DNA of 64,000 bases from Candidatus Microgenomates bacterium (GTDB taxonomy: Bacteria > Patescibacteriota > Microgenomatia > UBA8517). The notes under the pieces are model-generated. The model saw only the letters and a program-made list of their open reading frames with translations, did not search any database and was not told the DNA's origin. Location: the NCBI GenBank assembly GCA_049523135.1, contig JBEKNE010000001.1:542809-606808 (forward strand), read 5' to 3'. Made by a program: the position numbers and the translations under genes. Shown here in pieces: positions 7,530 to 36,566 of the stretch (within the stretch, counting starts at the first letter, position 1; each line of letters begins with the position of its first letter).

Positions 7530-7532
7530 AAA

Positions 7533-11528: not shown

Positions 11529-11980
11529 GGATTTATAACCTCATAATTACATGTACTGCAACTCCCGCAGTCTCCAGTGGGAATAGGTGATGCTGGAGGC
11601 TGTTCCAGTGTTGCACACAGCGTATATTTGTTATAAGTAACGCCATCCGACGCCAAAACCGGATAATATGGATAACTATCGGAAGTGACAGGATCGGTGG
11701 GAACATGGCTTATATAAGTATTTTTCGTCGAACAAGCAGATGATGGATCATCGACAGTCCCTACTAATTGGCTAGATAGAGCTGCAGGATAAGAATCACA
11801 ATCGGCCTTGTAAATTTCAAGTCCGCTTCTGATCTCTTCAAGATCCGATTTCCTTCTGGCATCACGTGCCGACTGGCGAGCTCCCTGAAGGCCAAAAACA
11901 GAAAGAGCAAGCAGGATTCCAATGATGGAAATAACAACCAAAAGTTCAATTAGTGTAAATCCCTTCTTCACAAAATTCAT
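11525..11980 (-). CDS. Type IV pilin/pseudopilin
   Basis: MNFVKKG|FTLIELLVVISIIGIL. Confidence 0.75.
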   Translation of the reverse strand: MNFVKKGFTLIELLVVISIIGILLALSVFGLQGARQSARDARRKSDLEEIRSGLEIYKADCDSYPAALSSQLVGTVDDPSSACSTKNTYISHVPTDPVTSDSYPYYPVLASDGVTYNKYTLCATLEQPPASPIPTGDCGSCSTCNYEVINP

Positions 11981-11983
11981 ATA

Positions 11984-12514
11984 TTATTGTGTTAATCCTG
12001 CTGGACAAGCAGCATCATCAAAGGATGGTGTTTCTGACGAAACAAGTTTGCCCGACTGACCTGTTGAACATACAATCCAATACGTATTTGTCGCACTTTC
12101 AAGTTTAGCCCAAAGGATATACTCTGTAGCTAAAGCGTTTGATTGATAATGATATTGAAGATAAGAATTGTCGTTTGCATATTTCGGATCTTCGGGACAA
12201 TCTGAAGTGTTGGTCAAAAAACCTGAACTAACTAGAGCAGAGCATAAACCACTCGTAATAGTAGAGGCTGCAGAAGGAAAATAAAGACCGTTATTCTTAT
12301 TTGCATAGGATTCAAGTGCATTTCTATATTGAGAAAGGTCAGATTTTCTTTGAGTATCCCTCGCTTGTTTTTGAGCCGAAACAAAAGAAACCGTAAACAA
12401 CGCCACCAAAATCCCGATAATGGAAATAACAACAAGAAGTTCAATTAGTGTAAATCCCTTTATATTTTTTTTCATTGTTGACTTACTTGAAACATCCAAC
12501 CGGTAGAACACCAC
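11984..12514 (-). CDS. Type IV pilin/pseudopilin (start probably at the internal MKKNIKG)
   Basis: KG|FTLIELLVVISIIGIL. Confidence 0.75.
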   Translation of the reverse strand: MVFYRLDVSSKSTMKKNIKGFTLIELLVVISIIGILVALFTVSFVSAQKQARDTQRKSDLSQYRNALESYANKNNGLYFPSAASTITSGLCSALVSSGFLTNTSDCPEDPKYANDNSYLQYHYQSNALATEYILWAKLESATNTYWIVCSTGQSGKLVSSETPSFDDAACPAGLTQ

Positions 12515-12999
12515 GTTGTATCACTTGTAGCAATTCCACTAGTATCACTTTGGTTTTCCAGACATGCGGAAAGAGTGTAAGAATCAGTATCACTTGGGTC
12601 TGAAGCATTACCCATTACATATTTATAATTTTGAGTTGCAGAGGTCGGATCTTGAGACATAGGATCTTTCGGAAGAGTTTGCATATAAATAGTTGATCCG
12701 ATATTCCACTCGGTACCCCAAGTGCAAATAACAACTGTTCCGCCTCCGTTGGGATCACAAGCCACCATTTGATTACTACTGCTAGATGGATATCTTCCTT
12801 TGTCATTGTAATAAAGCCTGAGTGCGGTCTGAATATTTTTAAGATCTGATTTTCTTTCCACATCACGCGCGCGTGACCTCGCTGAATTTAAATTTGCCGC
12901 AACCAGCGTAGCCAAAATTCCTATTATGGAAATAACAACAAGAAGTTCGATAAGCGTAAATCCGGATTTTTTATATGATGATAGATTATGGGCAGACAT
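12472..12999 (-). CDS. Type IV pilin/pseudopilin
   Basis: KKSG|FTLIELLVVISIIGILA. Confidence 0.75.
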   Translation of the reverse strand: MSAHNLSSYKKSGFTLIELLVVISIIGILATLVAANLNSARSRARDVERKSDLKNIQTALRLYYNDKGRYPSSSSNQMVACDPNGGGTVVICTWGTEWNIGSTIYMQTLPKDPMSQDPTSATQNYKYVMGNASDPSDTDSYTLSACLENQSDTSGIATSDTTWCSTGWMFQVSQQ

Positions 13000-13024
13000 A
13001 TTCTAATACTTATATTACTACATA

Positions 13025-13528
13025 CTATTGCGGTGGGGTAGTATTTGGGCTTGTTATTGCAAAATTACAGAGAGTATTTGTACCACAAGAATAACTTGTT
13101 GAAATTAATTCCGGATCTTGAGTATTTTCAAGATGGGCATAAAGCTGAAAACCCTGACCCGATAAAACAGTTGTATAAAAATAGCTATAAGAATATGTGG
13201 GATCTTTAGGTAAAGTCTTGAAATATATGGTCTTACCGTCAGTAAAATCGCCAGTTCCCCAAGAACAACTGCCGCCGGGGGAAGGACAACCGAGAATTTT
13301 ACCAGCTAATGCCGGAGGATAACTGCCGTAATCCGAATAATAAAGTTCGAGTGCACTGGAAATTTGTCCCAGATCGGACTTTCTTTCCGTATCCCTTCCC
13401 CTCATTTGAGCACTGGTAAATGTTTCCAGACCGATAGTAGCCAAGATCCCCAAAATGGCTATAACCACAAGGAGTTCAACCAACGTAAATCCCTTATTTT
13501 CCATTTTGTTTCTGTAATAAGTCATCAT
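13025..13528 (-). CDS. Type IV pilin/pseudopilin
   Basis: NKG|FTLVELLVVIAILGILA. Confidence 0.75.
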   Translation of the reverse strand: MMTYYRNKMENKGFTLVELLVVIAILGILATIGLETFTSAQMRGRDTERKSDLGQISSALELYYSDYGSYPPALAGKILGCPSPGGSCSWGTGDFTDGKTIYFKTLPKDPTYSYSYFYTTVLSGQGFQLYAHLENTQDPELISTSYSCGTNTLCNFAITSPNTTPPQ

Positions 13529-14132
13529 AAGCCTTTATTGAAATATTTATCGGCACGTTGTAGGAACGTCCGATATTGCAAATTCTGGTTCCGCAGTAAA
13601 GACCCCTGGCAATTATGCCCGGGTCGATTTCAGCTTCATCTTTAGCTTCCATTGACGCATAAATTTGGTACCTGTTCCCGTCAGTAAGATATAAATACTT
13701 TACACCCTTTTTATAATCCGGATCTTGAGGAAGCCTTTGCATATAAACTTCGCCTGTAATAAGGTTTGTGAATGCATCCGTTCCCCATTCGCAGGGGATT
13801 GGTGTATAGTCCCACCCGCCGGATTTATTTTTAATCGGCTTAGCTCCCGGTTTAAGACAATCAATAATGCGTCCGTCAGGTGTAGCCGCCGGCAAAGCAT
13901 TATTAAACTCTGCAAGATATTGATCAAACGCGTGATTAAGAGCTCCCATATCGTCTCTTCTTACCTGATCGCGGGCTTTTTCTAAACTAATAATAAAATT
14001 TGGGGTGGCTACTGCCGCCAAAACCAAAAAAATTACAATGAGTGAAATTATTTCGGGTTTGGTAAAAAATTTCATAATAATTAATGCACGGCAATACATT
14101 GATTTCCGGAAACGCCGCATACGCCATAACAT
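13494..14132 (-). CDS. Pilin-like protein with a degenerate leader (no G-FTLxE)
   Basis: MKFFTKPEIISLIVIFLVLAAVATPNF gives a hydrophobic N-helix and a pilin-like size and position, but the canonical cleavage motif is absent. Confidence 0.4.
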   Translation of the reverse strand: MLWRMRRFRKSMYCRALIIMKFFTKPEIISLIVIFLVLAAVATPNFIISLEKARDQVRRDDMGALNHAFDQYLAEFNNALPAATPDGRIIDCLKPGAKPIKNKSGGWDYTPIPCEWGTDAFTNLITGEVYMQRLPQDPDYKKGVKYLYLTDGNRYQIYASMEAKDEAEIDPGIIARGLYCGTRICNIGRSYNVPINISIKAYDDLLQKQNGK

Positions 14133-14737
14133 GTCGGGTTCTGGTAGTTAGGATCGCATTCAGGCCCCGGTATTGAGCTGTCCCATCCGATCGGTTGGCA
14201 ACTCCCGTTTATACAACCATAAAAATTCGAACCACCACTATTGCCACCGCTTGTACCTGTCGGGGTTGTCGTCTGAGTTATACCGGCAATATCAATAGGA
14301 GCATTTGGTGAACCTTGGACATAATTAAAGGCTTTATTAGGACCAATATTGGGAATTACCGACCCGTCTTGTGTATTTTGTAAAATAGAATAAATTTTGT
14401 ACCAACCCGGGCAATCAGGATTAGATGTGTCGTAAATATAAACAAACGGTACGTTCTTGACAGGATCACAAGGAATGTTATTCAAATAGGGATATATCTC
14501 ACTTGAACCACTATTCGCTCCGCAATAATCAATATCCTTAGGATAACAGTTGTGGTCCTTTTCATATTCTTCAACTGCAACCTGAATTCTATTGACATCT
14601 GCCTTTCTTTTTGCGTCATTTCCTTTAAAAATTTGTCCTGTGAAATAGGCGATAGTTATAGCCGACAAAATCGCAAGTAAAGCAACAACAATAAGAAGTT
14701 CAACTAATGTGAATCCAGAAAAGTATTTTTTCACCAT
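14081..14737 (-). CDS. Type IV pilin/pseudopilin
   Basis: YFSG|FTLVELLIVVALLAIL. Confidence 0.75.
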   Translation of the reverse strand: MVKKYFSGFTLVELLIVVALLAILSAITIAYFTGQIFKGNDAKRKADVNRIQVAVEEYEKDHNCYPKDIDYCGANSGSSEIYPYLNNIPCDPVKNVPFVYIYDTSNPDCPGWYKIYSILQNTQDGSVIPNIGPNKAFNYVQGSPNAPIDIAGITQTTTPTGTSGGNSGGSNFYGCINGSCQPIGWDSSIPGPECDPNYQNPTCYGVCGVSGNQCIAVH

Positions 14738-15452
14738 AAATTAAAGCTAACGGAATTGCCAAAACTAAAAATGGTCCAAAAGCAATTTGACTTTTAAATC
14801 CTGCTTTTCTACCTAAAATAAGTATGCTTCCCACGATTGCACCTGTCAAGAAAGCTAAAAATAACCAAACCAAAAACAGTCGCGGGCCAACAATTAAACC
14901 CCCTAAGACCGCCAACTTAACATCTCCCAATCCCATTCCCCGGCCTTTAGTAACTAAATGGATAATTAAAAGTAAAACTGAAGCGGCAAGCCCAGTAAAA
15001 AGATTCGGGAAAAGAGAACTTCCATTAACAAAAATATAATAAAAAAATGCTAGTCCGATTCCACAAAACACGAATAAGTCGGGAATAATTTTTCCCTCCA
15101 AATCAATTACCAAAATCGAAATTAGTATCAAAAAAAGAATTAAGGAATAAATAAATTGAAAATAGTACGAAGAAAAATTTAAAAAAATAATCAAAAATCC
15201 TAAACCGGTGGAAAACTCAATCAGGGGATAGCGGAAAGAAATTTTTTTCCTGCAGTTTCTGCATTTTCCACCCAAAAACAAAAATGAGAGTAGGGGGATA
15301 TTGTCGTACCAAGCGATTTGTCTTTTGCAGTTCGGGCAAAAACTCCGACCTTTGGCAATAGAAATTTGTCTAGGATAACGCCAAGTTAAGGCCGCAACAA
15401 AAGATCCAAAAACTAAACCGAGAATAAAAATAAGAATATGAGGAAGAATCAT
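14700..15452 (-). CDS. pilD: Prepilin peptidase (A24 family)
   Basis: Polytopic protein; CPNCKRQIAWYDNIPLLSFLFLGGKCRNC is a tetra-Cys zinc motif; DLEGKIIPD is a catalytic Asp region. Confidence 0.8.
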   Translation of the reverse strand: MILPHILIFILGLVFGSFVAALTWRYPRQISIAKGRSFCPNCKRQIAWYDNIPLLSFLFLGGKCRNCRKKISFRYPLIEFSTGLGFLIIFLNFSSYYFQFIYSLILFLILISILVIDLEGKIIPDLFVFCGIGLAFFYYIFVNGSSLFPNLFTGLAASVLLLIIHLVTKGRGMGLGDVKLAVLGGLIVGPRLFLVWLFLAFLTGAIVGSILILGRKAGFKSQIAFGPFLVLAIPLALIYGEKILFWIHIS

Positions 15453-16121
15453 TTACTCCGGAACACACTCGGCACAGGTTGGTAGTGATCCAGCAGCAGT
15501 AGTCCAACCTGTAGCACCAGGAGTACCACAATTTTCGGTATAAACCGGAGTACCGGTTGCACTAAATCCGCCGTTAACATTAGTCATTTTGCACGGACCT
15601 GTAGCACTTCCTGATGTACAACTATTTATTAATGTTTGTCGGTTTGCACTCGACTTCGGTACCCAGCATACATATACTCCAGAAGAAGCACCCGAAGCTT
15701 TGCCAATAAAAAGCTTGTCACTTACTTGTGTAGCACCTATCCATGACTTACTTAAAAAGGAAGTTTCAAGTTCAAAAGAAGAAATCAAAGGAGCGGGTGA
15801 AGCGCTTGTATTCTGACATGAAGCACCTGTAGCCGCACACAAACCAACAGTTACATCGTCAGCACTAATCCATCCAAATGGGCTATCACTGGTTAATGCT
15901 GGATTTGATGTAACCCAGGGAAAAGCAGTTGTGCTAGCGTAATATCTCTGAATTGCAGAAACCAACTCACTCGCGTCATTCTTGTAGCCGGCGTCCCTTG
16001 CTTTATTTGCCTGCTCAATAGGATTAATGGCGGCAATGACCATCGTCGCAATGACACCAAGAAGTGCAATAACAATTAGAAGTTCTACAAGTGTAAATCC
16101 TTTAGACAGAATCCTTTTCAT
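15453..16121 (-). CDS. pilA: Type IV pilin (candidate major pilin PilA)
   Basis: MKRILSKG|FTLVELLIVIALLGVIA; located directly between pilC and pilD. Confidence 0.7.
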   Translation of the reverse strand: MKRILSKGFTLVELLIVIALLGVIATMVIAAINPIEQANKARDAGYKNDASELVSAIQRYYASTTAFPWVTSNPALTSDSPFGWISADDVTVGLCAATGASCQNTSASPAPLISSFELETSFLSKSWIGATQVSDKLFIGKASGASSGVYVCWVPKSSANRQTLINSCTSGSATGPCKMTNVNGGFSATGTPVYTENCGTPGATGWTTAAGSLPTCAECVPE

Positions 16122-16142
16122 TCCTTTATTAAGTATTAACCC

Positions 16143-17348
16143 TTAAATTTGACTTGTCAAGTTGTATATAGGGAGTATCACAGCAATAACCAAAAATCCG
16201 ACTCCTAGTCCCAAAATTACCATAACGATTGGTTCTATAGCGGCGGTCAAACCTTTAACTTCTTCGTCACTTTGAACTTCAAAAATATGACTGATCTTGG
16301 TTAAGACATCTTCCATTTTTCCCGTTTCTTCTCCGACCGCAACCATCTGGCTCAAGATAAAAGGAAAGGCTTCGGGATGGCGTGCAAAAGCAAAAGCCAT
16401 AGGAAATCCCTTTTCAACCTGTGCTGAAACATCTTTCAGAGCATCCGAAACTACAGTGTTGCTCACAACCTCTGAAGTAATATTTAAGGCTTCAAGAATG
16501 GGAACTCCCGCCCCAACCATTAAAGAAAGAGTGCGGGTAAGATCGGTCAAAACTATCTGGCGCTGTAAATTGCCAAAAACAGGAATTTTAAAAATAAGTT
16601 CATCGATCTTTCTCCTTCCGGCAGGGGTTGCCTTATACAAACGGTATCCATAAAGTCCACCGACGATCAGAACAATCATCAAAAACCAGAAATGAATAAA
16701 AAAATTCGAAATGCCAATCAAAATTAATGTCGGTAGAGGCAGAGTAGCGTTAAAATCCGCATAAAGAGAAAGAAGTTTAGGAATAACAAAAATCATCATT
16801 ATGAAAGTCACAATTACCATTCCGGTAATTATTATTACCGGATAAATAAGAGCTCCCTTAACTTTACTGCCAAACTCCTGCTGTTTTTCCAAACTGTCCG
16901 CAAGTTTTATAAGTACAGCATCCAGTACCCCTCCGACTTCTCCCGATTTCACAAGAGCAATGTAAGTTCTGCTAAAAACTTTCGGGTGTCTTCCCAAAGC
17001 ATTTGAAAAAGATTCACCGGCTTCTATATCCGCCAAAAGCTGGGCTACAATTTTTTGCATTGAACCCTTAGACTGAGAACGCAAAACCAAAAGACCTTCG
17101 GTGATGGGAAGGCCTGCAGTAATCATTGTAGAAAGCTGACGGGTAAAAGTGGATACATCGGAAGAAGTAATTCTATCCTGAAATCTTCTGATAAGCGCAA
17201 AGGGGGAGTCGATTTTGGCAGCAAGTGAAATCACATAATAACCGCGACTTTTTACAAGTCTGGCAGCTTCATTTATATTTATTGCCTCGACTTCGCCCTT
17301 AACAAGCTTTCCGTTTTTATCCTTGGCCTTGTAGTTAAATCGTTTCAT
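16143..17348 (-). CDS. pilC: Type IV pilus assembly platform protein PilC (GspF family)
   Basis: 401 aa with two T2SSF repeats and three TM segments. Confidence 0.8.
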   Translation of the reverse strand: MKRFNYKAKDKNGKLVKGEVEAININEAARLVKSRGYYVISLAAKIDSPFALIRRFQDRITSSDVSTFTRQLSTMITAGLPITEGLLVLRSQSKGSMQKIVAQLLADIEAGESFSNALGRHPKVFSRTYIALVKSGEVGGVLDAVLIKLADSLEKQQEFGSKVKGALIYPVIIITGMVIVTFIMMIFVIPKLLSLYADFNATLPLPTLILIGISNFFIHFWFLMIVLIVGGLYGYRLYKATPAGRRKIDELIFKIPVFGNLQRQIVLTDLTRTLSLMVGAGVPILEALNITSEVVSNTVVSDALKDVSAQVEKGFPMAFAFARHPEAFPFILSQMVAVGEETGKMEDVLTKISHIFEVQSDEEVKGLTAAIEPIVMVILGLGVGFLVIAVILPIYNLTSQI

Positions 17349-17371
17349 TCAATTATCTTTTTATAGAAGGT

Positions 17372-18430
17372 TTAGGTACTCCTGACCAATCTCATAAGCT
17401 CTTCCGGACGAAGTGACCAACTTTGTGCCATTTCTAATGTAACAATTCCTTTTTTGACCAAATCCGCCAGAGATTTCTCCAAAGTACTCATTCCCGCCTC
17501 CTGAGAAGTTTCCAGAGTGCTTTCGATCTGATGAGTTTTACCGTCCCTGATTGCCGTTTTAATTGCAGTCGTACCCAGCATTACCTCATAAGCCACTGCC
17601 CGTCCTTTGGTGGTGGTTTGAATCAGTCTTTGCGAAAATACAGCTTCAAGAACATTGGAAAGTTGAAGCTGTACCTGCTTTTGCTGTTCATCGGGGAAGA
17701 CGTCAACAATTCTGTCAACCGACTGCGCGGCAGAATTTGTATGCAAAGTTGCAAACACAAGATGTCCCGTTTCCGCAACTGTCAGAGCGGCCGCAATTGT
17801 TTCATAATCCCGCATTTCACCAACCAGTACAACATCGGGGTCTTCCCTAAGAACGCTCCTTAGAGCAATTTCCCAAGAATGAGTATCGTTGTGCATTTCC
17901 CTTTGAGAAATAATAGATTTAATAGGACTAAAGACAAACTCTACAGGATCCTCAATTGTAACTATGTGGGCGGCTCTATTTTTATTAATCTCCTGAAGCA
18001 TTGCTGCCAAGGTAGTTGACTTTCCATGGCCGGTTGGACCCGTGATAAGAACCAAACCCTGTTTAAGAACCGTAAAAGAATGGAGAATGGGAGGAAGACC
18101 CAACGATTCTATCGAAGGTATCTCCAAAGGAATCAACCTGAAAGCTGCTGCAGAGGAACCTTTTTGTGTATAAGCATTAACCCGGAATCTTCCTTTCTCG
18201 GAAAAGGGAAATGAAAAATCCAATTCCCTGTTCACACTAAGTCGTTCCATTTGTTCACTTGTCAGAATTTCTTTAAGAAGTTCCGAGATTATATCCGGAG
18301 TCAAAACTCCGGTTCCGGGGAGGGGAATAAGCTCTCCGTCAATTCTAAGCGTGGGGGGAATACCGGTGATAAGATGCAAATCACTGGCTTTAGCGTCAAC
18401 CACTCCTTGTAACAATTGTTTTATATCCAT
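17372..18430 (-). CDS. pilT: Twitching motility ATPase PilT
   Basis: Walker A GPTGHGKSTTLAAM; 352 aa, typical PilT size. Confidence 0.8.
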   Translation of the reverse strand: MDIKQLLQGVVDAKASDLHLITGIPPTLRIDGELIPLPGTGVLTPDIISELLKEILTSEQMERLSVNRELDFSFPFSEKGRFRVNAYTQKGSSAAAFRLIPLEIPSIESLGLPPILHSFTVLKQGLVLITGPTGHGKSTTLAAMLQEINKNRAAHIVTIEDPVEFVFSPIKSIISQREMHNDTHSWEIALRSVLREDPDVVLVGEMRDYETIAAALTVAETGHLVFATLHTNSAAQSVDRIVDVFPDEQQKQVQLQLSNVLEAVFSQRLIQTTTKGRAVAYEVMLGTTAIKTAIRDGKTHQIESTLETSQEAGMSTLEKSLADLVKKGIVTLEMAQSWSLRPEELMRLVRST

Positions 18431-18440
18431 AATTTTTTAG

Positions 18441-20177
18441 TTAGTCCTGAGCAACTCTCAGTACCTCTTCCACAGTAGTTATTCCTTCAACCGCTTTCAA
18501 GAATCCGTCTTGCTCTAGACTAATCATTCCTTCATCCGTAGCCTCTTTTTCAATCGCGGCTGCGGAAGAATGCTCCAAAATAAGTTTACCGATCTTCTCC
18601 GTAATGGGAATAACTTCAAAAATACCGATTCTGCCATAATAACCGGAGTTGCCACAATCCGGATCTCCTTTACCTCTGTAAAGTTTTACGTCCCCCTGGG
18701 GCTGCCAAAGATTTCCCAACTCCACCTTTATGCTTTCGACAACTTTCGGATCAGGGGTATAAGCTTCCTTACAATCATCGTGAATCTTTCTGACAACCCT
18801 CTGGGCAACAATGCAGGTCATAGATGAAGCAAGAAGATAAGGTTCTGCTCCCATATCAAGAAGCCTCGGAAGAGCTCCCGAGGCATCATTTGTATGCAAT
18901 GTCGAAAAAACAAGATGTCCGGTAAGTGCCGCCTGTACGGCCAAATCAGCAGTTTCGCGGTCACGAATTTCCCCGACAAGAATAATATTCGGGTCCTGCC
19001 GCAAGAATGCCCTAAGTCCGTCCGCAAAAGTAAGTCCCACGGCAGGGTTAATCTGCACCTGATTAACCCCCGGGATTCTATATTCGATAGGATCTTCCAA
19101 AGTAACAATGTTAACTTTAGCCGTATTAAGCTTAGAAATAATTGAATACAAAGTGGTTGTTTTACCGCTTCCGGTTGGGCCGCAGATAAGAATTATTCCG
19201 TGAGGTCTTAAAATTGCATCCTGAAGATTTTTAAGGCCGCGTCCGCGAAGTCCAAGTTCGGGTAGGTCCGGAACTCCGCCGCTTTTCTTAAGTAACCTCA
19301 TGACAATTTTTTCTCCCCAAGTTGTCGGCAAGGAGCTAATACGAAGATCAACTTCCTCATCGCTTCCTTTAAAATTAAAGCGGCCGTCCTGAGGAATTCT
19401 TTTTTCATCAATTTTCATTCCGCTTAAAATTTTAATTCTGGAAACAAGGGAATCGTGAAGCTCCTTGGGAATCGAAAGCTTTTCCTGCAAAATTCCGTCG
19501 ATGCGGTAACGCACGCGGGTCGACTGCTCTTCAGGCTCTATGTGGACATCGCTGGCCCTACTTTTAATAGCAAAGTCCAAAATTTGCGAAACTATCTGGG
19601 CAATTTTTTCCTCGCGGATAAATCCTCCCTTTCCATTCTCAAGAGTTGTAACTTCCTGTTTTTCGGGTGCAACATCTTTCAAGGCCGCCGTAACTTCCTG
19701 CGTTAACGAAGTTGTATAACGGGTTTGAACAAAATCATCAATCTGGGACGGAAGCGCAGCACAGGGCTTTACATGAAAGCCTGTTTTTTGTTCAATAAAT
19801 TCAATTGCGGAAAGGTCCAGGGGGTCAGCCATTGCCAGTACAATACTTTTGTCTTTTATATCTATGCTTATCGGAAAGACGCGGAAACGGGTGGCAACCT
19901 CGGAAGGAAGGGAAGATAAAGCGGCCGGGGCTACCGGAATGGAACTTAAATCAACATAAGGAATATTGTAAAGTTGGGCTCTTGCCTGAACCAGCTTGGC
20001 TTCAGGAACCATCGCACTTTTTCTGATTATGTCTTCCTGTGTAGAACCACTTTGAATTTCCGCAAGTTTTATTTGTTCTGCACGCTTGGCATCGAGAGCA
20101 CCGAGGGAAACCAAAACATCGGCTAAAGTGGTTCCGGTACCATTTGCATTGGGTTGAACAGGTTGGGTAGTGGGCAT
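18441..20177 (-). CDS. pilB: Type IV pilus assembly ATPase PilB (GspE family)
   Basis: GPTGSGKTTTLYS; N-terminal GSPII domain; 578 aa. Confidence 0.85.
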   Translation of the reverse strand: MPTTQPVQPNANGTGTTLADVLVSLGALDAKRAEQIKLAEIQSGSTQEDIIRKSAMVPEAKLVQARAQLYNIPYVDLSSIPVAPAALSSLPSEVATRFRVFPISIDIKDKSIVLAMADPLDLSAIEFIEQKTGFHVKPCAALPSQIDDFVQTRYTTSLTQEVTAALKDVAPEKQEVTTLENGKGGFIREEKIAQIVSQILDFAIKSRASDVHIEPEEQSTRVRYRIDGILQEKLSIPKELHDSLVSRIKILSGMKIDEKRIPQDGRFNFKGSDEEVDLRISSLPTTWGEKIVMRLLKKSGGVPDLPELGLRGRGLKNLQDAILRPHGIILICGPTGSGKTTTLYSIISKLNTAKVNIVTLEDPIEYRIPGVNQVQINPAVGLTFADGLRAFLRQDPNIILVGEIRDRETADLAVQAALTGHLVFSTLHTNDASGALPRLLDMGAEPYLLASSMTCIVAQRVVRKIHDDCKEAYTPDPKVVESIKVELGNLWQPQGDVKLYRGKGDPDCGNSGYYGRIGIFEVIPITEKIGKLILEHSSAAAIEKEATDEGMISLEQDGFLKAVEGITTVEEVLRVAQD

Positions 20178-20265: not shown

Positions 20266-24140
<3,875 letters not shown>

Positions 24141-27460: not shown

Positions 27461-27489
27461 TTGACAAAGCATCTCATAATCGGTATTTT
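27461..27489 (+). promoter_or_regulatory. Sigma70-like promoter (TTGACA-17-TATTTT) in an AT-rich 380-nt intergenic region
   Basis: TTGACA at 27461-27466, a 17-nt spacer, TATTTT at 27484-27489. Confidence 0.4.
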
Positions 27490-27574: not shown

Positions 27575-27608
27575 AAAGGACATTTCTTTTTTGAAGTGTC
27601 CTTTTTTT
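27575..27608 (+). terminator. Rho-independent terminator / attenuator hairpin upstream of the repeat-protein gene
   Basis: 9-bp stem (GGACATTTC at 27578-27586 with GAAGTGTCC at 27593-27601), a 6-nt loop and a 7-T tail at 27602-27608. Confidence 0.55.
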
Positions 27609-27653
27609 GTTTCATTAAACAAAAGCATAAATAGAAAGGGGGTGAATATATAA

Positions 27654-28085
27654 ATGAAAAAAGTTTTAAGTGTCGTCGCAGCAGGAGCTTTGCTCTTTAG
27701 TGTAGCGGGTGTAGTTTTTGCAGCTCGCAGCATAACAACCCAAAATAACATGGGTACATTAACCGTTGTTGGTTCAGTTGCTGTTAGCAATTCCGGACTC
27801 AACTTTCAGAAAGATAATGGTTTCAAGGTTATGTCAACCGGAAATACAGCCGCTGTAAGCGGAGTACAATCTGTTGCTAATCAAAACGGTAAAGGACTTG
27901 GGGTTGGTACAACCACCCAAACCAATACTAAAACAGGGACTCTTGTCTTATCTGTGGCAGCAAGCAATTCCGGATTAAATGGTCAATCCGGAACTGGCTC
28001 CGTCATGCATACAGGTGATGCAGGAAGTAGTTCCACTGTTTATTCATGGGCAAACATAAATCTTAGCGGAGTAACACTCGAATAA
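27654..28085 (+). CDS. Small secreted repeat protein (candidate major subunit of a surface structure)
   Basis: Strong SD AAAGGGGGTG; signal peptide MKKVLSVVAAGALLFSVAGVVFA; two copies of a roughly 45-aa N/S/G/T-rich repeat (..VAxSNSGLNxQ...G..VM.TG[DN]xA..S...) shared with the next gene. Confidence 0.7.
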   Translation: MKKVLSVVAAGALLFSVAGVVFAARSITTQNNMGTLTVVGSVAVSNSGLNFQKDNGFKVMSTGNTAAVSGVQSVANQNGKGLGVGTTTQTNTKTGTLVLSVAASNSGLNGQSGTGSVMHTGDAGSSSTVYSWANINLSGVTLE

Positions 28086-28100
28086 GATTTATTCCATCTG

Positions 28101-28130
28101 GGGGCGGTCGCCTTCGGGCGACCCGCCACC
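28101..28130 (+). terminator. GC-rich stem-loop with a UUCG tetraloop between the small and large repeat-protein genes (partial terminator / stabiliser)
   Basis: GGCGGUCGCC-UUCG-GGCGAC(C)CGCC, a 10-bp GC stem with one bulge and a weak U-tract; conspicuous in an AT-rich genome. Confidence 0.45.
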
Positions 28131-28169
28131 ATTTGGTAGTTAATCATTCTGCCTTTAGAAAGAAATATT

Positions 28170-30263
28170 TTGAAAAAGTTTTTAAAAATTTTGGTCTTAA
28201 CTCTTGCCCTCTGGCAGGCTTTATTTGGTCCTGTTTCTCTTTCTTTGGTTTACGCCCAGGATGATACTTCCAGTTCAACTCCAACCGATACACCAACATC
28301 AACCCCGACCTCTACTCCCGACCAAACTATGGTTACCGGAGACGCTTCAGCCTCGGCAGATTCACAGACAGATTCGAATATTTCCGATATTTCTACTACA
28401 CCCACACCAAGTCCGACCGATGAACCAACACCGATAGATACTTCTACTCCTGATGCTACAGAATCGGCGACATCCGTCATTGATGCCACAGGTTCGGCAA
28501 CTTTAGACCCGGAAGCGACTTCATCAACCACCCCAACTCTAACACCATCCGATATCTCCGTTGATCAATCCAGAGCAGTTACAACAAACACGGCCTCAAT
28601 TGCCAATTCCGGTAATAATACCCAACAAAATGAAAACGCTTCCGGAAGCGCAACCATGACAACAGGGGATGCTGGAAGTTCCAGTAGTTCCATAACAGTC
28701 ACAAACCTTTCCACTATCGACTCCAACCTGGTAACAACTGTCCAAAATATTTTAACTTCAAATAACAATGATGTTGATCTTTACCAATTACTGGAATCTG
28801 CCGTTGCCCAAAATCCCAATCTTATTCCGGCAAATACCAATATAACCGTTACCCAAAACGCAAATGTTAGCACCAATACCGTTGCGGAAAGCAACACGGG
28901 AGAAAATAGTCAGAGCTCGGACTCAGCTGGTATGCAAACGGGTGACGCCACATCGGTTGCCTCAGCAATTAATGCAACCAATCTTAATCTTGTTGGTTCA
29001 AATGCGGTTTTATTTATTATCAACATCTTGGGAGATTATTCAGGAAATATTATTTTACCGGACGGCAAAACTGTTTCTTTAGTCTCTCTGGGACTAGGGA
29101 ATGTTAATGTTAATTCCAACCAAAGCGCGGATGTTAATGCAAATACCGAGGCAGGCGCAAACTCAGGAAACAATAATCAAACCGGCGGCAGCACAGAAAT
29201 GACAACAGGTACCGCGGTAAGTACTTCCAACTCAAATTCTTTTGTCAATCTTGTTCAAATCGGCGGAGGTTGGGGATATGTTGTAATAAATAACTCGGGA
29301 AGCTGGACCGGAAACCTAATCGGTTGGACCGCTCCGGGATCTACCCAAACTTTGCCCCAGGGAACTACAAATTTAGCAGAGAGTTCACAATCAAATACAA
29401 ACGGAGAAACAGGAACAACAAATATTACTTCTAATCAAACTGCAAATGTTTCCACCAACGTTTCGGCGGATGCCAATACCGGTAGTAATAATCAAACCGG
29501 CGAGAGTCTTAATTTAACTACCGGTAATGCTTTTTCTCTTGCAAATAATTTTACCCTGGCAAATATTACAGGTGTCGGCGCAAACCTTTTCTTTGGAATA
29601 ATAAATATATTTGGAAATTGGACGGGAAACCTAACCAAAGGCCCCTATACCCCACCTGCAAGTGATCCTCCGGCAGATTCCGCTCAAACTGATAATTCTT
29701 CACCCGATACACGTACACCCGATTTACAAATTACAACAACAAACAATGTGGGGAAGTTTGTTTATCCCGGTGATACTGTTCTTGCAAATATTACTGTAGT
29801 AAATCAAAGCGCGTTTACAGCACATAATGTTGAAGTAAAAGGTCAGCTAACTAACGACCACCCTATGCCGGCAATTCCAATGGATTGGAAAGTGGGAGAT
29901 CTCAGACCGGGTGGAAAAGCCAAAATCAATTTTTCTATTACCCTTACCTCCAATTTACCAGCGGGTCAGTATAATATTTCAGCAACAGCAATAGGAGACA
30001 GCGAAAGCGGAGACGCAGTCTCAGTGGATTCAAACAGTTCTTTCTGGGTCAGAGTCAAAGGCGCAATTGCAGAGATCACCAGTCCGTCCGTTCTTGCTGA
30101 ATCTCCGATAAATGAAGATGAAAATGTCCTGGGAATTGAAACTTCGAAACCAACTCTTGACATTAATAAATACTTGCCCTATATTCTGGCTAGTCTTGCC
30201 GCTGCCTATTTGCTGATACTTTTTGCCAGAAGAAAGTTGGAAGAAAATGAAAAGAATAAATAA
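28170..30263 (+). CDS. Large membrane-anchored surface repeat protein (Thr/Pro-rich stalk, four N/Q/S/T repeats, DUF11/CARDB-like domain, C-terminal TM plus basic tail)
   Basis: Signal peptide; mucin-like TPTSTP region; four imperfect repeats of about 50 aa (AxxN[ST]GxNxQ...M[TQ]TG[DN]A.S...N...G.N..F.I.NI); NVEVKGQLTND..AGQYNISATAIGDSESGDA (DUF11-like); C-terminus KYLPYILASLAAAYLLILFARRKLEENEKNK. Confidence 0.7.
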   Translation: MKKFLKILVLTLALWQALFGPVSLSLVYAQDDTSSSTPTDTPTSTPTSTPDQTMVTGDASASADSQTDSNISDISTTPTPSPTDEPTPIDTSTPDATESATSVIDATGSATLDPEATSSTTPTLTPSDISVDQSRAVTTNTASIANSGNNTQQNENASGSATMTTGDAGSSSSSITVTNLSTIDSNLVTTVQNILTSNNNDVDLYQLLESAVAQNPNLIPANTNITVTQNANVSTNTVAESNTGENSQSSDSAGMQTGDATSVASAINATNLNLVGSNAVLFIINILGDYSGNIILPDGKTVSLVSLGLGNVNVNSNQSADVNANTEAGANSGNNNQTGGSTEMTTGTAVSTSNSNSFVNLVQIGGGWGYVVINNSGSWTGNLIGWTAPGSTQTLPQGTTNLAESSQSNTNGETGTTNITSNQTANVSTNVSADANTGSNNQTGESLNLTTGNAFSLANNFTLANITGVGANLFFGIINIFGNWTGNLTKGPYTPPASDPPADSAQTDNSSPDTRTPDLQITTTNNVGKFVYPGDTVLANITVVNQSAFTAHNVEVKGQLTNDHPMPAIPMDWKVGDLRPGGKAKINFSITLTSNLPAGQYNISATAIGDSESGDAVSVDSNSSFWVRVKGAIAEITSPSVLAESPINEDENVLGIETSKPTLDINKYLPYILASLAAAYLLILFARRKLEENEKNK

Positions 30264-30918
30264 AGCAGCTATCGTTTTTACACTTCTTTTTATTGCTTCA
30301 TTGGGTTTAGTTGGAAAAGTAAACGCAAGTATAATAAATACTTTAAACATAACTATTCAAAACCCGCCAACCCCTCCGACTCCTCCTAAAAAACCCGAAC
30401 CTCCGCTCCCTCCAAATTTACCTACTCCTACACCTAAAGCAACTTCAACGCCGGTTCCGACGTCAAATACGACATCGACTTCAACATCAGGCGGCGGAGG
30501 AAGTGCCCCAAGTTGTAATGCAGCAAAACCCGGAACTCCCGTTATTTATAGTGAGATAAGAAAAGGGACGAGCGAAATTTTAACCTGGTCAAGTGTACCC
30601 AACGCAACATACTATTCAATTATTTACGGAGAAATAAACGGTCAATATCCATATGGTGTACCAAACACGGGAAATGTGACCTCATACACGATTAACGATT
30701 TGAAACTTGGTACAGCCTATCACTTTAAAGTTAATGCCGTTAATGATTGTATGCCGGGAGATTCCGGAGTACTAGGCAGCGGACAAGTTTTAGGTGCTTC
30801 CACAATGGCAGGGACAGGTACCTTTGAACAAAACATCTTCTTAGCTATAATGGGATTTGGTGGTATCATTTCACTTTTCGGTATCAAAAACTTCAAGAAA
30901 GCTTTTAGTAAAGCTTAA
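30223..30918 (+). CDS. Fibronectin type III domain surface protein with Pro-rich linker and C-terminal TM anchor (start likely at MKRINK, 30247)
   Basis: Signal/TM, PPTPPTPPKKPEPPLPPNLPTPTPK, an FN3-like segment (PGTPVIYSEI..TWSSVPNATYYSIIYGE..YHFKVNAVN), C-terminal hydrophobic stretch plus KNFKKAFSKA. Confidence 0.6.
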   Translation: MPEESWKKMKRINKAAIVFTLLFIASLGLVGKVNASIINTLNITIQNPPTPPTPPKKPEPPLPPNLPTPTPKATSTPVPTSNTTSTSTSGGGGSAPSCNAAKPGTPVIYSEIRKGTSEILTWSSVPNATYYSIIYGEINGQYPYGVPNTGNVTSYTINDLKLGTAYHFKVNAVNDCMPGDSGVLGSGQVLGASTMAGTGTFEQNIFLAIMGFGGIISLFGIKNFKKAFSKA

Positions 30919-31486
30919 AAAGCTTATCCCCAAAAAGCCAAGGTCAAAGAAAAAAAGAATACTTCTTAGAAATTCCTTAATTTTTATTTCTCTGGGTTTA
31001 ATTGTGACGATCTTCGGCGGGGTAAACTACTATAGGGTCAGGACGCTTTCTTTCAACTCGGTTCCTCCCGAAGTAAAAACTGCAACAAAAAACATTGATA
31101 TACCCGTTGAGATTATGATTCCTTCCATAAAAATTGATTTGCCGGTAGACCCGGGTGAAATCGATAACGGTGTTTGGAAAGTTTCAGCCGCCAACGCTAC
31201 TTTTCTTTCAACTTCCGCAGCTCCGGGGAACAGAGGCAACACGGTTATTTACGGACATAATCTGAAAGCAATTTTTGGTAATCTTCCGTACTTAAGCGTC
31301 GGACAAAAAATAATTATTAAAACAAAAAGCGGAAAAATTTATAATTATGTTGCCTCACAAAAATATTTTGTCGGTCCCGACAGGACCGATTTGGTTTCAC
31401 CAACAATTAAAGAAGAGCTGACAATCTACACCTGTTGGGGAGTTTTTGACAGTCAAAGGGCTGTTATTAAAGCCAGCCCAATTTAA
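30857..31486 (+). CDS. Sortase-family transpeptidase (start uncertain, probably non-ATG downstream of 30857)
   Basis: N-terminal TM; NRGNTVIYGHN (catalytic His), LTIYTCWG (TLxTC Cys) and SQRAVIKA (Arg) align with the SrtA H120/C184/R197 regions. Confidence 0.7.
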   Translation: MVVSFHFSVSKTSRKLLVKLKKLIPKKPRSKKKRILLRNSLIFISLGLIVTIFGGVNYYRVRTLSFNSVPPEVKTATKNIDIPVEIMIPSIKIDLPVDPGEIDNGVWKVSAANATFLSTSAAPGNRGNTVIYGHNLKAIFGNLPYLSVGQKIIIKTKSGKIYNYVASQKYFVGPDRTDLVSPTIKEELTIYTCWGVFDSQRAVIKASPI

Positions 31487-31572
31487 CTCGGTTTTTCCAT
31501 CTTCCCATTGCTTCTAATGGGCATAAAGACTAAAATGTATTGAGGCTGAATTAGCCTCAAATATTTTTTGAA

Positions 31573-34348: not shown

Positions 34349-34927
34349 ATGAAAACAAAGCGTTTGTTTATTGTATTATTTGTTTTGATTTTGGGAATAA
34401 TTGTCGGTTGTGCTCCGTCAGCTGCGCAAATTCAAGAGGCGATTGCCGAAACTCAAACTGCAGCGCCGACCATAACTCCGACAAATACCTTACAACCAAC
34501 ATCTACGCCTGTACCAACAACTGTCCCAACCAAAGCCGATATTCCAAATGAATGTTTAACCTTTGAGGCTGTTCAATATGTGCATGATTGGGGTGTACTT
34601 GATGATCGTTTTTCAACAATTTATGCGCAGAGCAATAACACCACCTCCGGTCTTTCAACATATGAAGTTGATATGCAGCAACTAATCCAAGATACAAAAG
34701 CCTTACAACCTCCTGAGTTGTTCAAAGCAATGAACAGTGTCTTCCTTTCCGAAGAAGAAGCTTATCAGAACTTTTTGAATGCCGAAGAAAATGGAGATAC
34801 AAAAACTGCAAATCAAATGATTCAGGAACAAGAAATGTATAACGGGTTAGGCCAGGCAGAGTGGAATAAGATCAATACCTATTGTAATGGTTTTAAACAG
34901 ACAACCGTTGGCGGTAGTAATACATAA
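34349..34927 (+). CDS. Putative lipoprotein
   Basis: Signal peptide with lipobox LGIIVGC|APS; Thr/Pro-rich linker. Confidence 0.45.
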   Translation: MKTKRLFIVLFVLILGIIVGCAPSAAQIQEAIAETQTAAPTITPTNTLQPTSTPVPTTVPTKADIPNECLTFEAVQYVHDWGVLDDRFSTIYAQSNNTTSGLSTYEVDMQQLIQDTKALQPPELFKAMNSVFLSEEEAYQNFLNAEENGDTKTANQMIQEQEMYNGLGQAEWNKINTYCNGFKQTTVGGSNT

Positions 34928-35009
34928 GAGCAGTTTGTCCCATAAGGGCTATTTTTCTTAATCAAAAGATAGCCCTTTTTTTATTTCATAAACATCATAT
35001 ATAATAAAA

Positions 35010-35771
35010 TTGATGCAAGAAGATAAAAAACAGCAAATAGGTCAGGTCTTTGGTTTGGTATTTTTCATTTTTATTCTTCTTTTTGTCTTTGCCAAGTGGG
35101 GACCTCCCATAAACTTTAATTCAATTACTCAAACCAAAGGAGAACCCTTGGTGGTTCAGGGAACCGGAAAATCTTTCGTCGCACCTGACATTGCAAAAGT
35201 TGATTTGGGAATTCAGGAAACAGGGGGAGACCTGAAAACCGTTGAGAATTCCGTTAACACAAAATCCCAAAATTTGGTTACCCAGATTGAAAAATTGGGA
35301 ATTGCAGAAAGTGATATCCAAACAATTTTATATAATGTTTATCCGCAATATGACTATACGGCACCAACCCAAGAAATAACCGGTTATCAGGTTTCCACCG
35401 AATATGAAGTTACCGTCCGCGACTTTACCAAAATTAACGATTTGTTGTCCACCTCTACAAGTGCTGGTGCAAATACCATTGGTAGTGTAACTTTTGATTT
35501 AAGCGACAATCTTAAAAATCAGAAGCTGCAAGAGGCCAGAGATGAAGCAGTTACTGAAGCGAAAACAAAAGCTACAGGGCTTGCCAAAGCCGCAGGAATA
35601 ACTTTAGGAAATATTATTAATGTTTCCGAGGAAACTCCGTCAAATGTTACACCCCTTATGCTTCCCGCTTCCGGCGGGGGAGTAACCGAAAAAACAGTTA
35701 CACCTCCCAGTATCCAATCCGGAACAACCGAAATAGACGTCACCGTTTCCCTCTCCTACGAAATTCGCTAA
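35010..35771 (+). CDS. SIMPL-domain (DUF541/BP26-like) membrane-anchored protein
   Basis: N-terminal TM, then ...VVQGTGKSFVAPDIAKVDLGIQETGGDLKTVENSVNTKSQNLVTQIEKLGIAESDIQT.., a pattern typical of the SIMPL family. Confidence 0.5.
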   Translation: MMQEDKKQQIGQVFGLVFFIFILLFVFAKWGPPINFNSITQTKGEPLVVQGTGKSFVAPDIAKVDLGIQETGGDLKTVENSVNTKSQNLVTQIEKLGIAESDIQTILYNVYPQYDYTAPTQEITGYQVSTEYEVTVRDFTKINDLLSTSTSAGANTIGSVTFDLSDNLKNQKLQEARDEAVTEAKTKATGLAKAAGITLGNIINVSEETPSNVTPLMLPASGGGVTEKTVTPPSIQSGTTEIDVTVSLSYEIR

Positions 35772-35846
35772 ATAATTTCCTTAGTTATACAATGTGTTTG
35801 CCTCTTTATTTTGATCGTACTTTAACTAAAAGGAAAGGAGAACAAA

Positions 35847-36566
35847 ATGAAAAAGGTGGTTCTATTAATCACCACCGTCTTACTGACAGCATGTGCTTCA
35901 GCGCAAAATATTTCTGCTACAGTTCTGCCAACAATGTCACAAATAACAGCTATAGTAACTGCAACACCAAATATAGTTACTGCAACACCGACTCAAGAAC
36001 CGACAGTAACGACAACCCCGATCCCGACCATAACCCCGACACCAAACGGAACATATATCGTTCAGTCGGGTGAGACGCTGGGCAAAATTGCCGCAAAATT
36101 TGGAATGCCCTACGGGTACTTGGCGGAAGAGAATAATATTCCCGACCCGAATCTGATTTATACAGGGCAGGTTTTAACTATTCCCATATGGCCTCCAATT
36201 CCCAAAACTGATAACGGCAAGCTCATAATTGTTATCTTGTCGCAACAAGAAGTTTACGTTTACCAAGACGGAACCCTGTTAAAAACTTTCATTGTTTCCA
36301 CTGGGGTTCCTCAGTATCCAACAGTTACAGGTCGCTACAAGATTTATGTCAAATACAAATCTGCAACTATGAGTGGCGACGGGTACTATCTGCCGGATGT
36401 GCCGTGGGTCATGTATTTTTACCAAGGATATGGCCTCCACGGAACTTACTGGCACCACAACTTCGGGCACCCGATGAGCCACGGCTGTGTCAATATGTAC
36501 ACACCGGACGCGGAATGGTTATTTAATTGGGCTGATGTAGGAACACCGGTATGGATCTATCTTTAA
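35847..36566 (+). CDS. LysM domain-containing L,D-transpeptidase (YkuD family) lipoprotein
   Basis: Lipobox LLTAC; LysM (YIVQSGETLGKIAAKFGMPYGYLAEENNIPDPNLIYTGQVLTIP); catalytic HGTYWHHNFGHPMSHGCVNM. Confidence 0.8.
   Translation: MKKVVLLITTVLLTACASAQNISATVLPTMSQITAIVTATPNIVTATPTQEPTVTTTPIPTITPTPNGTYIVQSGETLGKIAAKFGMPYGYLAEENNIPDPNLIYTGQVLTIPIWPPIPKTDNGKLIIVILSQQEVYVYQDGTLLKTFIVSTGVPQYPTVTGRYKIYVKYKSATMSGDGYYLPDVPWVMYFYQGYGLHGTYWHHNFGHPMSHGCVNMYTPDAEWLFNWADVGTPVWIYL

Follow-up and report, generated by a model that had tools for sequence, protein, structure and literature searches.

What is made by the four co-directional genes that lie between hppA and gyrA in the genome of a Candidatus Microgenomates bacterium, and do they act together as a single surface system? 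The question arises from a stretch of 64,000 nucleotides (assembly GCA_049523135.1, contig JBEKNE010000001.1, positions 542,809 to 606,808 of the forward strand; hereafter the window), in which an earlier note, drawn from the sequence alone, had described a secreted repeat protein (gene 1), a larger paralogue (gene 2), a fibronectin type III (FN3) protein (gene 3) and a sortase (gene 4), and had proposed that they encode a surface filament assembled or anchored by the sortase. The Patescibacteria, or Candidate Phyla Radiation (CPR), may form a large share of bacterial diversity and live attached to other cells, and, to our knowledge, essentially nothing is known of their surface molecules beyond type IV pili and the Pam pili reported recently. 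We found that the operon consists of two conserved modules: module A, made of gene 1, an intercistronic stem-loop and gene 2, and module B, made of gene 3 and the sortase. Both are new with respect to the libraries and the literature that we searched, the first as a large unannotated pair of short and long repeat proteins with a conserved intercistronic stem-loop, and the second for a sorting signal, combining a VLG box with an [LM]AxTG pentapeptide, that belongs to a CPR sortase clade, the dedicated substrate being encoded upstream.

All four open reading frames (ORFs) lie where the earlier note had placed them (Table 1), and its account of an AT-rich region in front of them held as well: the spacer upstream of gene 1 measures 385 nt and has a GC content of 28% versus 39.8% for the window. 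The same ORFs, with the same hppA and gyrA flanks, are found in the public gene calls for metagenome contigs of identical sequence, which reach 640 kb in length. The names of samples and metagenome-assembled genomes hint at an origin in peat or groundwater.

Scanning an alignment of gene 2 against one genome per species yielded 45 loci. Where the title is specific, the locus belongs almost always to the Microgenomatia (Levyibacteriota, Woese-, Gottesman-, Beckwith- and Amesbacteria), with a single case from Paceibacterota; many of the others are titled just "Patescibacteria group" and some otherwise, e.g., "uncultured Gammaproteobacteria", which we took to be mislabelled metagenome-assembled genomes. 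The homologues are named as Candidatus Levybacteria, Levyibacteriota or Patescibacteria group. With a hidden Markov model (HMM) built from diverse short proteins and loci taken from species-representative genomes, a protein of 120 to 211 amino acids (aa) with a signal peptide and two repeats was found immediately 5' of the gene 2 homologue in 38 of the 39 loci that offered enough upstream DNA. The sequence of gene 1 used alone as query retrieved only about 10 relatives; an exhaustive HMMER search with the short-protein profile collected 2,627 representatives of clusters at 50% identity with E ≤ 1e-3, and 1,453 with E ≤ 1e-10. Among the best of these matches, many were short (about 145 to 200 aa, one two-repeat unit) and many were long (at least 600 aa, mostly with 3 to 7 matched stretches). 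The two size classes also differ at their ends: all 51 diverse short homologues that we sampled start with a signal-peptide-like segment and only two of them present a C-terminal hydrophobic stretch, while 48 of the 69 long homologues sampled carry a C-terminal helix. The named members of the family, all from Patescibacteria or Moranbacteria, are without exception called "hypothetical protein".

The earlier note had considered the repeat novel, and our searches agree. Neither the proteins of the window nor the diverse short and long homologues gave a Pfam or NCBIfam match to the repeat, and gene 1 itself belongs to no family of these two libraries. A profile search of the Protein Data Bank (PDB) returned no match in the repeat region; the only matches below 0.01 were designed armadillo-repeat proteins, aligned over 33 profile columns outside the repeats, which we took to be spurious. 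The paralogy of genes 1 and 2 was confirmed by BLASTP (E = 3e-5) and by hhalign (probability 92.6%, E = 4.7e-7), as were the two repeats of gene 1, with landmarks NSGLN at aa 46 and 105 and TGNT/TGDA at aa 62 and 120, and the four of gene 2, to which an additional half repeat must now be added.

Gene 2 starts with a signal peptide, the half repeat (aa 53-74) and a disordered linker rich in T, P and S (aa 81-124), continues with the four full repeats (aa ~125-495) and a CARDB/CLIPPER-like immunoglobulin-like (Ig-like) domain (aa 519-627), and ends with a flexible linker, a C-terminal helix and a basic tail. An AlphaFold2 (AF2) model built with 72 homologues reached a mean predicted local distance difference test score (pLDDT) of 82.8 and a predicted template modelling score (pTM) of 0.63, with the repeats above a pLDDT of 90. 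In this model, each repeat is made of a strand of about 19 residues, a tight NSG.N turn, a TGDA turn and a strand of about 16 residues, and repeats 2 to 4 are each followed by a further hydrophobic hairpin of the 'LFIINILGDYSGNIILP' type. According to hhalign, gene 1 has both long strands in each of its repeats and does not have the 'LFIINILGDYSGNIILP'-type insert of gene 2. After the repeats, the model shows a short disordered linker, a β-sandwich of about 110 aa, a disordered linker containing the VLG box and a long helix. No structural counterpart was found for the repeat region, whose fold is neither CnaA nor CnaB, while the Ig-like domain has a fold-level match to 9ifr. This domain lies below Pfam detection in the window protein, for which the sole match was MG2 at E = 0.35; in the orthologue P0012 and many homologues, PF01345, PF07705 or PF10633 is found at the equivalent position. 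More generally, the homologues of gene 2 carry DUF11/CLIPPER, CARDB, DUF7507 and NPCBM_assoc domains between the functional region and the anchor, in agreement with the β-sandwich of the model and with the role of CLIPPER/DUF11 domains as typical stalks of fibrillar adhesins (PMC12617251).

As to the fold of the repeat unit, for which a β-solenoid or an Ig-like fold had been envisaged, the model of gene 2 thus provided long-stranded β repeats, with the Ig-like domain as a separate unit placed after them, and the monomer of gene 1 gave no fold at all (pLDDT of 39.5), a failure that constitutes weak evidence because the alignment was shallow, with 9 sequences. The N-terminal half repeat of gene 2 was also considered as a donor strand acting in trans; this idea was weakened by the finding that the first repeat of many homologues is merely split by a low-complexity insertion.

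The way in which the two genes are expressed can be read from several signals. Upstream of gene 1, the promoter-like block CTTCTTGACAA..CTCATAAT..GTATTTT is invariant in the window and in three related loci (L007, L012 and L010) despite diverged surrounding DNA, and so is the Shine-Dalgarno region GAAAGGGGGTGAA.ATATAAATG across these four loci, which bears out the very strong ribosome-binding site attributed to gene 1. The 5' leader folds with a z-score of -4.5 and includes a predicted stem-loop resembling an intrinsic terminator placed between promoter and gene, which could serve as an attenuator or as a leader stabiliser; its sequence is not conserved among the relatives and gave no match in Rfam. 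The hairpin noticed after gene 1 proved to be a general feature of the pair: 32 of 33 related loci have in the gene 1-gene 2 spacer a hairpin of -20 kcal/mol or lower (median -28), a value reached by 3.4% of 469 random segments of the same length from the same loci (median -11.3; Mann-Whitney p = 1e-20). The structure is kept while the sequences differ, a T-rich tail is present in just 9 of the 33, and Rfam holds no match to it. This stem-loop would presumably be a partial terminator or a 3' stabiliser setting the level of gene 1 well above that of genes 2 to 4. Because the promoter and the Shine-Dalgarno region are invariant and the stem-loop conserved, and because gene 2 starts at a TTG codon behind a weak Shine-Dalgarno box, we infer that the product of gene 1 greatly outnumbers that of gene 2.

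Could a protein made in such presumed excess be polymerised by the sortase? Family alignments argue that it could not. The family of gene 1 ends right after the last repeat strand, with no C-terminal sorting signal and no membrane helix, and its mature part has no conserved lysine, K2 and K3 of the signal peptide being the sole (nearly) invariant lysines; it follows that a sortase cannot polymerise gene 1 in the manner of SpaA-type pili, and the sortase-assembled filament of the earlier note is not supported. A bacteriocin was also considered for gene 1, on account of an NCBIfam BLB8/JUQZ alignment reaching from the signal peptide through the initial ~50 residues of the mature protein, and was rejected since the match scores just 13.6 bits against a cut-off of 40 and gene 1 is obligately paired with its paralogue. 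Many short homologues in alignment A4 (e.g., those of L022 at 7320-7775, L026, L042 and L047) carry, in the linker that joins their two repeats, a CxC motif ('GCDCFDD', 'CGC') that may be a disulfide or metal-binding site; gene 1 of the window and its close relatives have zero cysteines.

Module B contains a genuine sortase. Gene 4 matches the Pfam Sortase family (PF04203) with 77.5 bits versus a cut-off of 26.6, its residues 86-208 covering profile positions 1-124 of 125, and the catalytic residues reported earlier, His134 (YGHN), Cys193 (TIYTC) and Arg201, are invariant across 15 aligned homologues. Its sequence reads at the N-terminus as a hydrophobic segment, LIFISLGLIVTIFGGVNYY (aa 41-59), after a K/R-rich stretch. 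All NCBIfam class models stayed below their cut-offs, with scores of 29-39 bits versus 140-166: SrtD 38.6 (cut-off 140), class D 36.6 (165), class F 33.9 (166), class GN 32.6 (158), class E 30.4 (160) and class C 29.0 (160); the general model TIGR01076 gave 31.3 (39.35). Gene 4 is thus a member of the sortase superfamily outside the curated classes, whose nearest solved structure is the class D sortase of B. anthracis (2kw8, E = 1.3e-7).

Gene 3, confirmed as an FN3 protein by Pfam (fn3, PF00041, 32 bits versus a cut-off of 25, E = 1.4e-7), is composed of a signal peptide, an N-terminal strand SIINTLNITIQN (30328-30363), a polyproline linker, the FN3 domain and a C-terminal signal. The latter, which in full reads VLGSGQVLGAST-MAGTG-TFEQN-IFLAIMGFGGIISLFGI-KNFKK and includes the peptide segments QVLGASTMAGTGTF and QVLGASTMAGTGTFEQ, comprises two VLG boxes (30769-30777 and 30787-30795), the pentapeptide MAGTG (30805-30819), a helix (30835-30885) and the tail KNFKK. 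The succession of motif, hydrophobic helix and basic tail that the earlier note had seen at the ends of genes 2 and 3 is present in the sequence, and its statement that LPxTG is lacking is only literally true, because MAGTG is a motif of the LAxTG type; the orthologues of gene 3 and other sortase partners carry LAGTG, LADTG, LAATG, MAKTG, LGATG and, rarely, LPATG. The orthologues of L010, L014, L015 and L050 do not have the FN3 domain and retain the Pro-rich linker and the signal. The place of gene 3 directly upstream of the sortase is conserved: for the 21 sortases found in the gene 2 loci, the upstream partner, usually overlapping, nearly always has a C-terminus made of VLG box, hydrophobic helix and basic tail. 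An independent, sortase-centred metagenome sample comprised 69 distinct sortases, for 44 of which upstream DNA was available; in this sample 38 of 44 upstream partners end with a VLG box and 34 of 44 show an [LM][APGS]xTG pentapeptide just after the box, a typical signal being GQVLGAST(M/L)A(G/K/A)TG(S/T)F..KK. The suggestion of a non-canonical sorting motif was thus well founded: it is a composite signal (VLG box, [LM]AxTG, helix, basic tail) of the LAxTG/class E type with a lineage-specific VLG box.

Cleavage at LAxTG and anchoring of the long chaplins are the work of class E sortases, whose β3/β4 loop has a conserved Tyr that reads the Ala at P3 (PMC5148588); the likeness to class E is one of specificity only, because gene 4 fails the class E profile. 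The LPXTG anchor model TIGR01167 matched the C-terminus of neither gene 2 nor gene 3, its nearest approach being a relative that bears LPATG (15.0 versus a cut-off of 15.9), and when the C-terminal signals were searched in isolation, no Pfam or NCBIfam model recognised the VLG box or these C-termini. CPR genomes, and those of Microgenomates almost universally, encode a sortase (PMC6744442, PMC7143001); the searchable literature on sortase substrates or S-layer proteins of CPR, Patescibacteria or Microgenomates contained only mentions that a sortase gene is present. In a subclass of partners (L014, L016, L026, L027 and L058), the helix is preceded by 'VLGLSxTSGxN' and a TG pentapeptide is lacking, which points either to a different sortase specificity or to recognition of the VLG box itself. 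The sortase partners of L060-L137 carry very diverse passenger domains, among them recurrent unannotated ones ('..AIWTT.N.CG...VNHY..G..V.INGSGF..' and '..ICHATS...PY..I......GHF.E..'), and together make a ready catalogue of wall-anchored CPR proteins.

The VLG box is not restricted to the partners of the sortase. [VI]LG or a close variant is found in 40 of the 41 complete homologues of gene 2 versus 10% of background windows; in gene 2 itself the box lies in a linker of low pLDDT (aa 637-661), and its G655 is nearly invariant in alignment A2. The [LM]AxTG pentapeptide is absent from gene 2 and from 67 of 69 diverse large homologues, which speaks against the earlier view of gene 2 as a sortase substrate. 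P0030-P0062 and many of the gene 2 homologues of the loci have after the helix a conserved cytoplasmic tail of about 30 aa ending in '..FKEKLxxLRMFLL', and P0015-P0021 have a second helix, while gene 2 of the window has only the short tail RRKLEENEKNK. Such conservation in distant homologues suggests that the membrane anchor of gene 2 is kept and not cut off.

Together, these data led us to a surface fibre or coat in which gene 1 would polymerise on anchored gene 2 and the sortase would anchor gene 3, a reading to which we give about an even chance. All of genes 1-3 have Sec signal peptides, which show that genes 1 and 2 are exported by Sec, and gene 1 would be far more abundant than the downstream products if its strong promoter, perfect Shine-Dalgarno box and stem-loop act as their sequences suggest. 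Gene 2 would stay in the membrane through its C-terminal helix and, following its confident model, would hold 4.5 long-stranded β repeats off the membrane on an Ig-like stalk of the CARDB/CLIPPER type. Gene 1 would then most likely assemble non-covalently onto gene 2 and onto itself by pairing of β-sheets, the product being an anchored surface polymer, either fibre or sheet. By the precedent of LAxTG and class E, the sortase would most likely cleave gene 3 between T and G of MAGTG in VLGAST-MAGTG-helix-KNFKK and link it to peptidoglycan, its role being one of anchoring and not of fibre polymerisation. Gene 3 would thus be a proline-rich/FN3 stalk anchored to the wall, and its N-terminal strand, which resembles the last repeat strand, might speculatively dock the assembly of genes 1 and 2 to the wall. 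A wider version of this scenario is distinctly less probable, and we hold it only tentatively: module A might be an undescribed Patescibacteria-wide polymer of a new long-stranded β-repeat fold, with an abundant, secreted two-repeat subunit of ~12 kDa templated by a membrane-anchored multi-repeat paralogue, an RNA stem-loop that sets their ratio and, in lineages like the present one, a tie to the wall by a sortase-anchored adaptor that would complete the repeat sheet with its N-terminal strand, the VLG box being a new sorting element read by CPR-specific sortases.

The surface polymer is weakened at several places. Polymerisation of gene 1 is presumed, its excess over gene 2 is read only from sequence, and its monomer model failed. 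The mature N-terminus of gene 3 aligns with the last strand of the half repeat of other sortase partners; against the repeat HMM it gave E > 0.7, being too short for significance. The modules, moreover, are often apart, since no sortase lies within 3 kb in 12 of the 21 gene 2 loci with complete flanks, and a gene 2-like neighbour occurs in only 3 of the 17 sortase-centred loci of at least 9 kb, so that modules A and B may be functionally independent, and the diversity of the partner passengers implies that gene 3 may be simply one more cargo. What the earlier note had presented as one sortase-associated surface operon (small and apparently highly expressed subunit, hairpin, large paralogue, FN3 protein and sortase) is thus genuine in its layout, and does not stand as an obligate four-gene unit, the pair being nearly constant and the sortase being nearby in only 9 of these 21 loci. 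The main rival to the surface polymer, which we regard as rather unlikely, builds on these facts: gene 2 would be a membrane-anchored adhesin or receptor, as the typical adhesin stalk role of CLIPPER/DUF11 also suggests, gene 1 would be a soluble, non-polymeric partner (a cap, chaperone, decoy or co-receptor), and gene 3 with the sortase would be an unrelated housekeeping cassette. However, the hairpin and the expression signals of gene 1 imply an excess that fits a bulk subunit better than a 1:1 partner, and several links between the modules count against independence: none of the 21 sortases of the gene 2 loci is more than 2.6 kb away from gene 2, in flanks of up to 8 kb; genes 2, 3 and 4 overlap in the window; the VLG box is common to gene 2 and to the sortase partners, gene 3 included; and in several lineages the cargo itself carries the repeat. 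In L016, L026, L050, L058 and L059, the sortase partner has one repeat or the second half of one ('TTGDATSTTVVETQLNTNIKDCDC'), then a Pro/Thr linker and the signal, and the repeat proteins in L031 and L048 end in LAATG signals.

The VLG box also raises the question of whether gene 2 is itself cut. If the sortase recognised the box and cleaved near it, gene 2 would be linked to the wall too and the whole assembly would be covalently anchored, an outcome that differs from our scenario and that we consider quite improbable. The box is more universal than the pentapeptide among the partners (38 versus 34 of 44), the VLGLSxTSGxN subclass does without the pentapeptide, and nearly all complete gene 2 homologues have the box; but only V-L-G is conserved, with no fixed P1-like residue, at 10-25 aa from the helix, the cytoplasmic tails of distant homologues suggest a retained anchor, and many gene 2 loci lack a nearby sortase. 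Still further from the data is a pilus polymerised covalently by the sortase through a non-canonical motif, with gene 1 as major pilin and genes 2 and 3 as minor ones. We hold such a pilus to be very unlikely despite the pilus-like layout of the operon, its genuine sortase and the chance that the VLG box of genes 2 and 3 is a recognition element: the absence of sorting signal, helix and conserved lysine outside the signal peptide in the gene 1 family, the 29 bits of gene 4 against a class C cut-off of 160, the lack of the pentapeptide in gene 2-type proteins, whose distant members keep a cytoplasmic tail or second helix, and the number of gene 1/gene 2 loci with no sortase within 3 kb are all contrary to it.

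Among known systems, the chaplins with their class E sortases appear closest in logic to the fibre or coat that we favour, followed by curli (CsgA/CsgB) and TasA/TapA; membership in any of them fails because there is no homology, gene 1, gene 2 and the diverse homologues giving no Pfam or NCBIfam match to chaplin, curlin (Curlin_rpt) or TasA (Peptidase_M73). In Streptomyces, short secreted chaplins (ChpD-H) likewise occur beside longer tethered paralogues (ChpA-C) that contain the unit in several copies (PMC5148588), P3 is occupied by Ala and not by Pro (LAxTG via SrtE1/E2 there, MAGTG/LAGTG here), and the sortase anchors without polymerising, to which the LAATG-bearing repeat proteins of L031 and L048 are comparable. 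On the other hand, gene 2 lacks the pentapeptide and relies on a membrane helix for its anchoring, gene 4 is far below the class E cut-off, the repeats are of ~45-100 aa with long β-strands whereas chaplins have amyloid domains of ~40 aa, and the host is a Patescibacterium, not an actinomycete. With curli and the TasA/TapA fibres of Bacillus, the operon would share a secreted repeat subunit templated or anchored by a cell-bound protein and a non-covalent assembly outside the membrane; the window contains neither a CsgG-type channel nor SipW.

In SpaA-type pili, every pilin carries a C-terminal sorting signal, the major subunit has a pilin-motif lysine and a dedicated class C sortase is present; we tested for these three defining features and found none of them, the presumed major subunit gene 1 being without signal and lysine and the sortase not being of class C. 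The resemblance is confined to an operon of small subunit, larger subunits and sortase, to the tripartite signal on gene 3 and to the CnaA-related (CLIPPER/CARDB) Ig-like domain of gene 2. The Pam pili of CPR are made of PamA/B pilins, PamC/D chaperones and the anchor PamR: the pilins are two-domain Ig-like proteins using donor-strand exchange and PapD-like membrane-anchored chaperones, the genes lie in an ATP synthase neighbourhood with no sortase, and PamR, proposed to anchor the filament, is an FnIII protein that has an extra strand at its N-terminus and a helix at its C-terminus (10.64898/2026.03.03.709456). As with the system presented here, they would represent a CPR-specific, Sec-dependent surface filament with no trans-envelope machine, and the layout of gene 3 is analogous to that of PamR. 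However, there are no chaperone-like genes in our operon, its neighbours are hppA and gyrA and its repeat architecture is different, and a Pam pilus operon was rejected on gene content and architecture (the model of gene 2 is not a two-domain Ig-like pilin), the sequences themselves not being compared. Finally, fibrillar adhesins also place DUF11/CLIPPER stalk domains between the functional region and the anchor, as do the homologues of gene 2, but gene 2 has a single stalk domain and not long tandem arrays, and has a small secreted paralogue and a conserved intercistronic hairpin as obligate companions.

With its ~2,600 representatives, its two-gene architecture, its expression signals and its anchoring, the repeat family stands as a strong candidate for a major component of the Microgenomatia surface. 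The VLG box with [LM]AxTG appears, from the sequences, to be the signal used by a sortase clade nearly ubiquitous in Microgenomatia, and would allow wall-anchored proteomes of this group to be predicted from metagenomes; the clade could also supply a sortase of new specificity for protein engineering.

Table 1. Positions in the window of the operon, its signals and the neighbouring genes mentioned in the text.
Feature	Position	Strand	Description or basis
Operon, genes 1-4		+	Between hppA (H+-pyrophosphatase, H+-PPase) upstream and gyrA downstream; ORFs and gene calls
Promoter-like TTGACA-17-TATTTT	27461..27489	+	Consensus scan, 10/12 matches
Leader stem-loop, then T-run TTTTTTTG	27575..27604	+	Terminator-like scan, 12 pairs; ~30 nt 5' of the Shine-Dalgarno box
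Shine-Dalgarno box AAGGGGGTGA	27636..27645	+	8 nt 5' of the gene 1 ATG
Gene 1, 143-aa secreted protein	27654..28085	+	Sec signal peptide (..VFA, cut before A), two ~45-aa repeats, no anchor
GC-rich stem-loop between genes 1 and 2	28099..28131 (core)	+	No U-tract; minimum free energy -33.5 kcal/mol, z = -3.9
Gene 2, 697-aa paralogue of gene 1	28170..30263	+	TTG start
Gene 2 VLG box (aa 653-655)	30126..30134	+	Flexible linker; the membrane helix follows 12 aa later
Gene 2 C-terminal membrane helix YLPYILASLAAAYLLILFA and RRK tail	30171..30236	+	Model helix aa 665-696
Gene 3, 223-aa sortase substrate	30247..30918 (ORF start also 30223)	+	Overlaps the gene 2 end by 17 nt
Gene 4, membrane-anchored sortase	30857..31486	+	Overlaps gene 3 by ~60 nt
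Terminator-like hairpin and T-run	31540..31560	both	Terminator scan, 9 pairs, tail ATATTTTTTG; gap between sortase gene and gyrA
Secreted T/P-rich protein, 192 aa	34349-34927	+	No family
SIMPL-domain protein	35010-35771	+	
LysM+YkuD L,D-transpeptidase	35847-36566	+	
Prepilin peptidase	14700-15452	-	A24_N_bact+Peptidase_A24
PilC-like gene	16143-17348	-	
PilT	17372-18430	-	
PilB	18441-20177	-	T2SSE+MshEN

The hairpin that follows the sortase gene is the probable end of the operon. Downstream of gyrA (34349-36566, + strand), three genes add further envelope functions (Table 1) in a neighbourhood that is conserved in relatives. Upstream, at 7 kb from the operon and on the - strand, the window contains a complete-looking type IV pilus cluster (10067-20177), in which about ten small pilin-like ORFs form a run and an N_methyl motif is found in 10067-10591; the organism thus has at least one other surface filament system. 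The gyrB gene (20880-24140, + strand; 1,086 aa) has, according to the gene calls, an intein (PF14890, Intein_splicing) between its GyrB domains.

An additional four-gene module, missing from the window, lies between hppA and gene 1 in two related loci (L008, 1305-7722, and L012, 623-6249). It encodes a 208-aa Sortase-domain protein (67.6 bits) with 'TLTIQTD' at the TLxTC site, where Cys is replaced by Asp, a 186-aa secreted protein of no family, a protein of 942-960 aa composed of an N-terminal S26 signal-peptidase-like region, Big_13 and CHB_HEX_C, and an FN3 protein of 422 aa that contains several helices and two VLG boxes. The module might represent a pseudo-sortase or a system with an alternative nucleophile, and recalls SipW/TasA.

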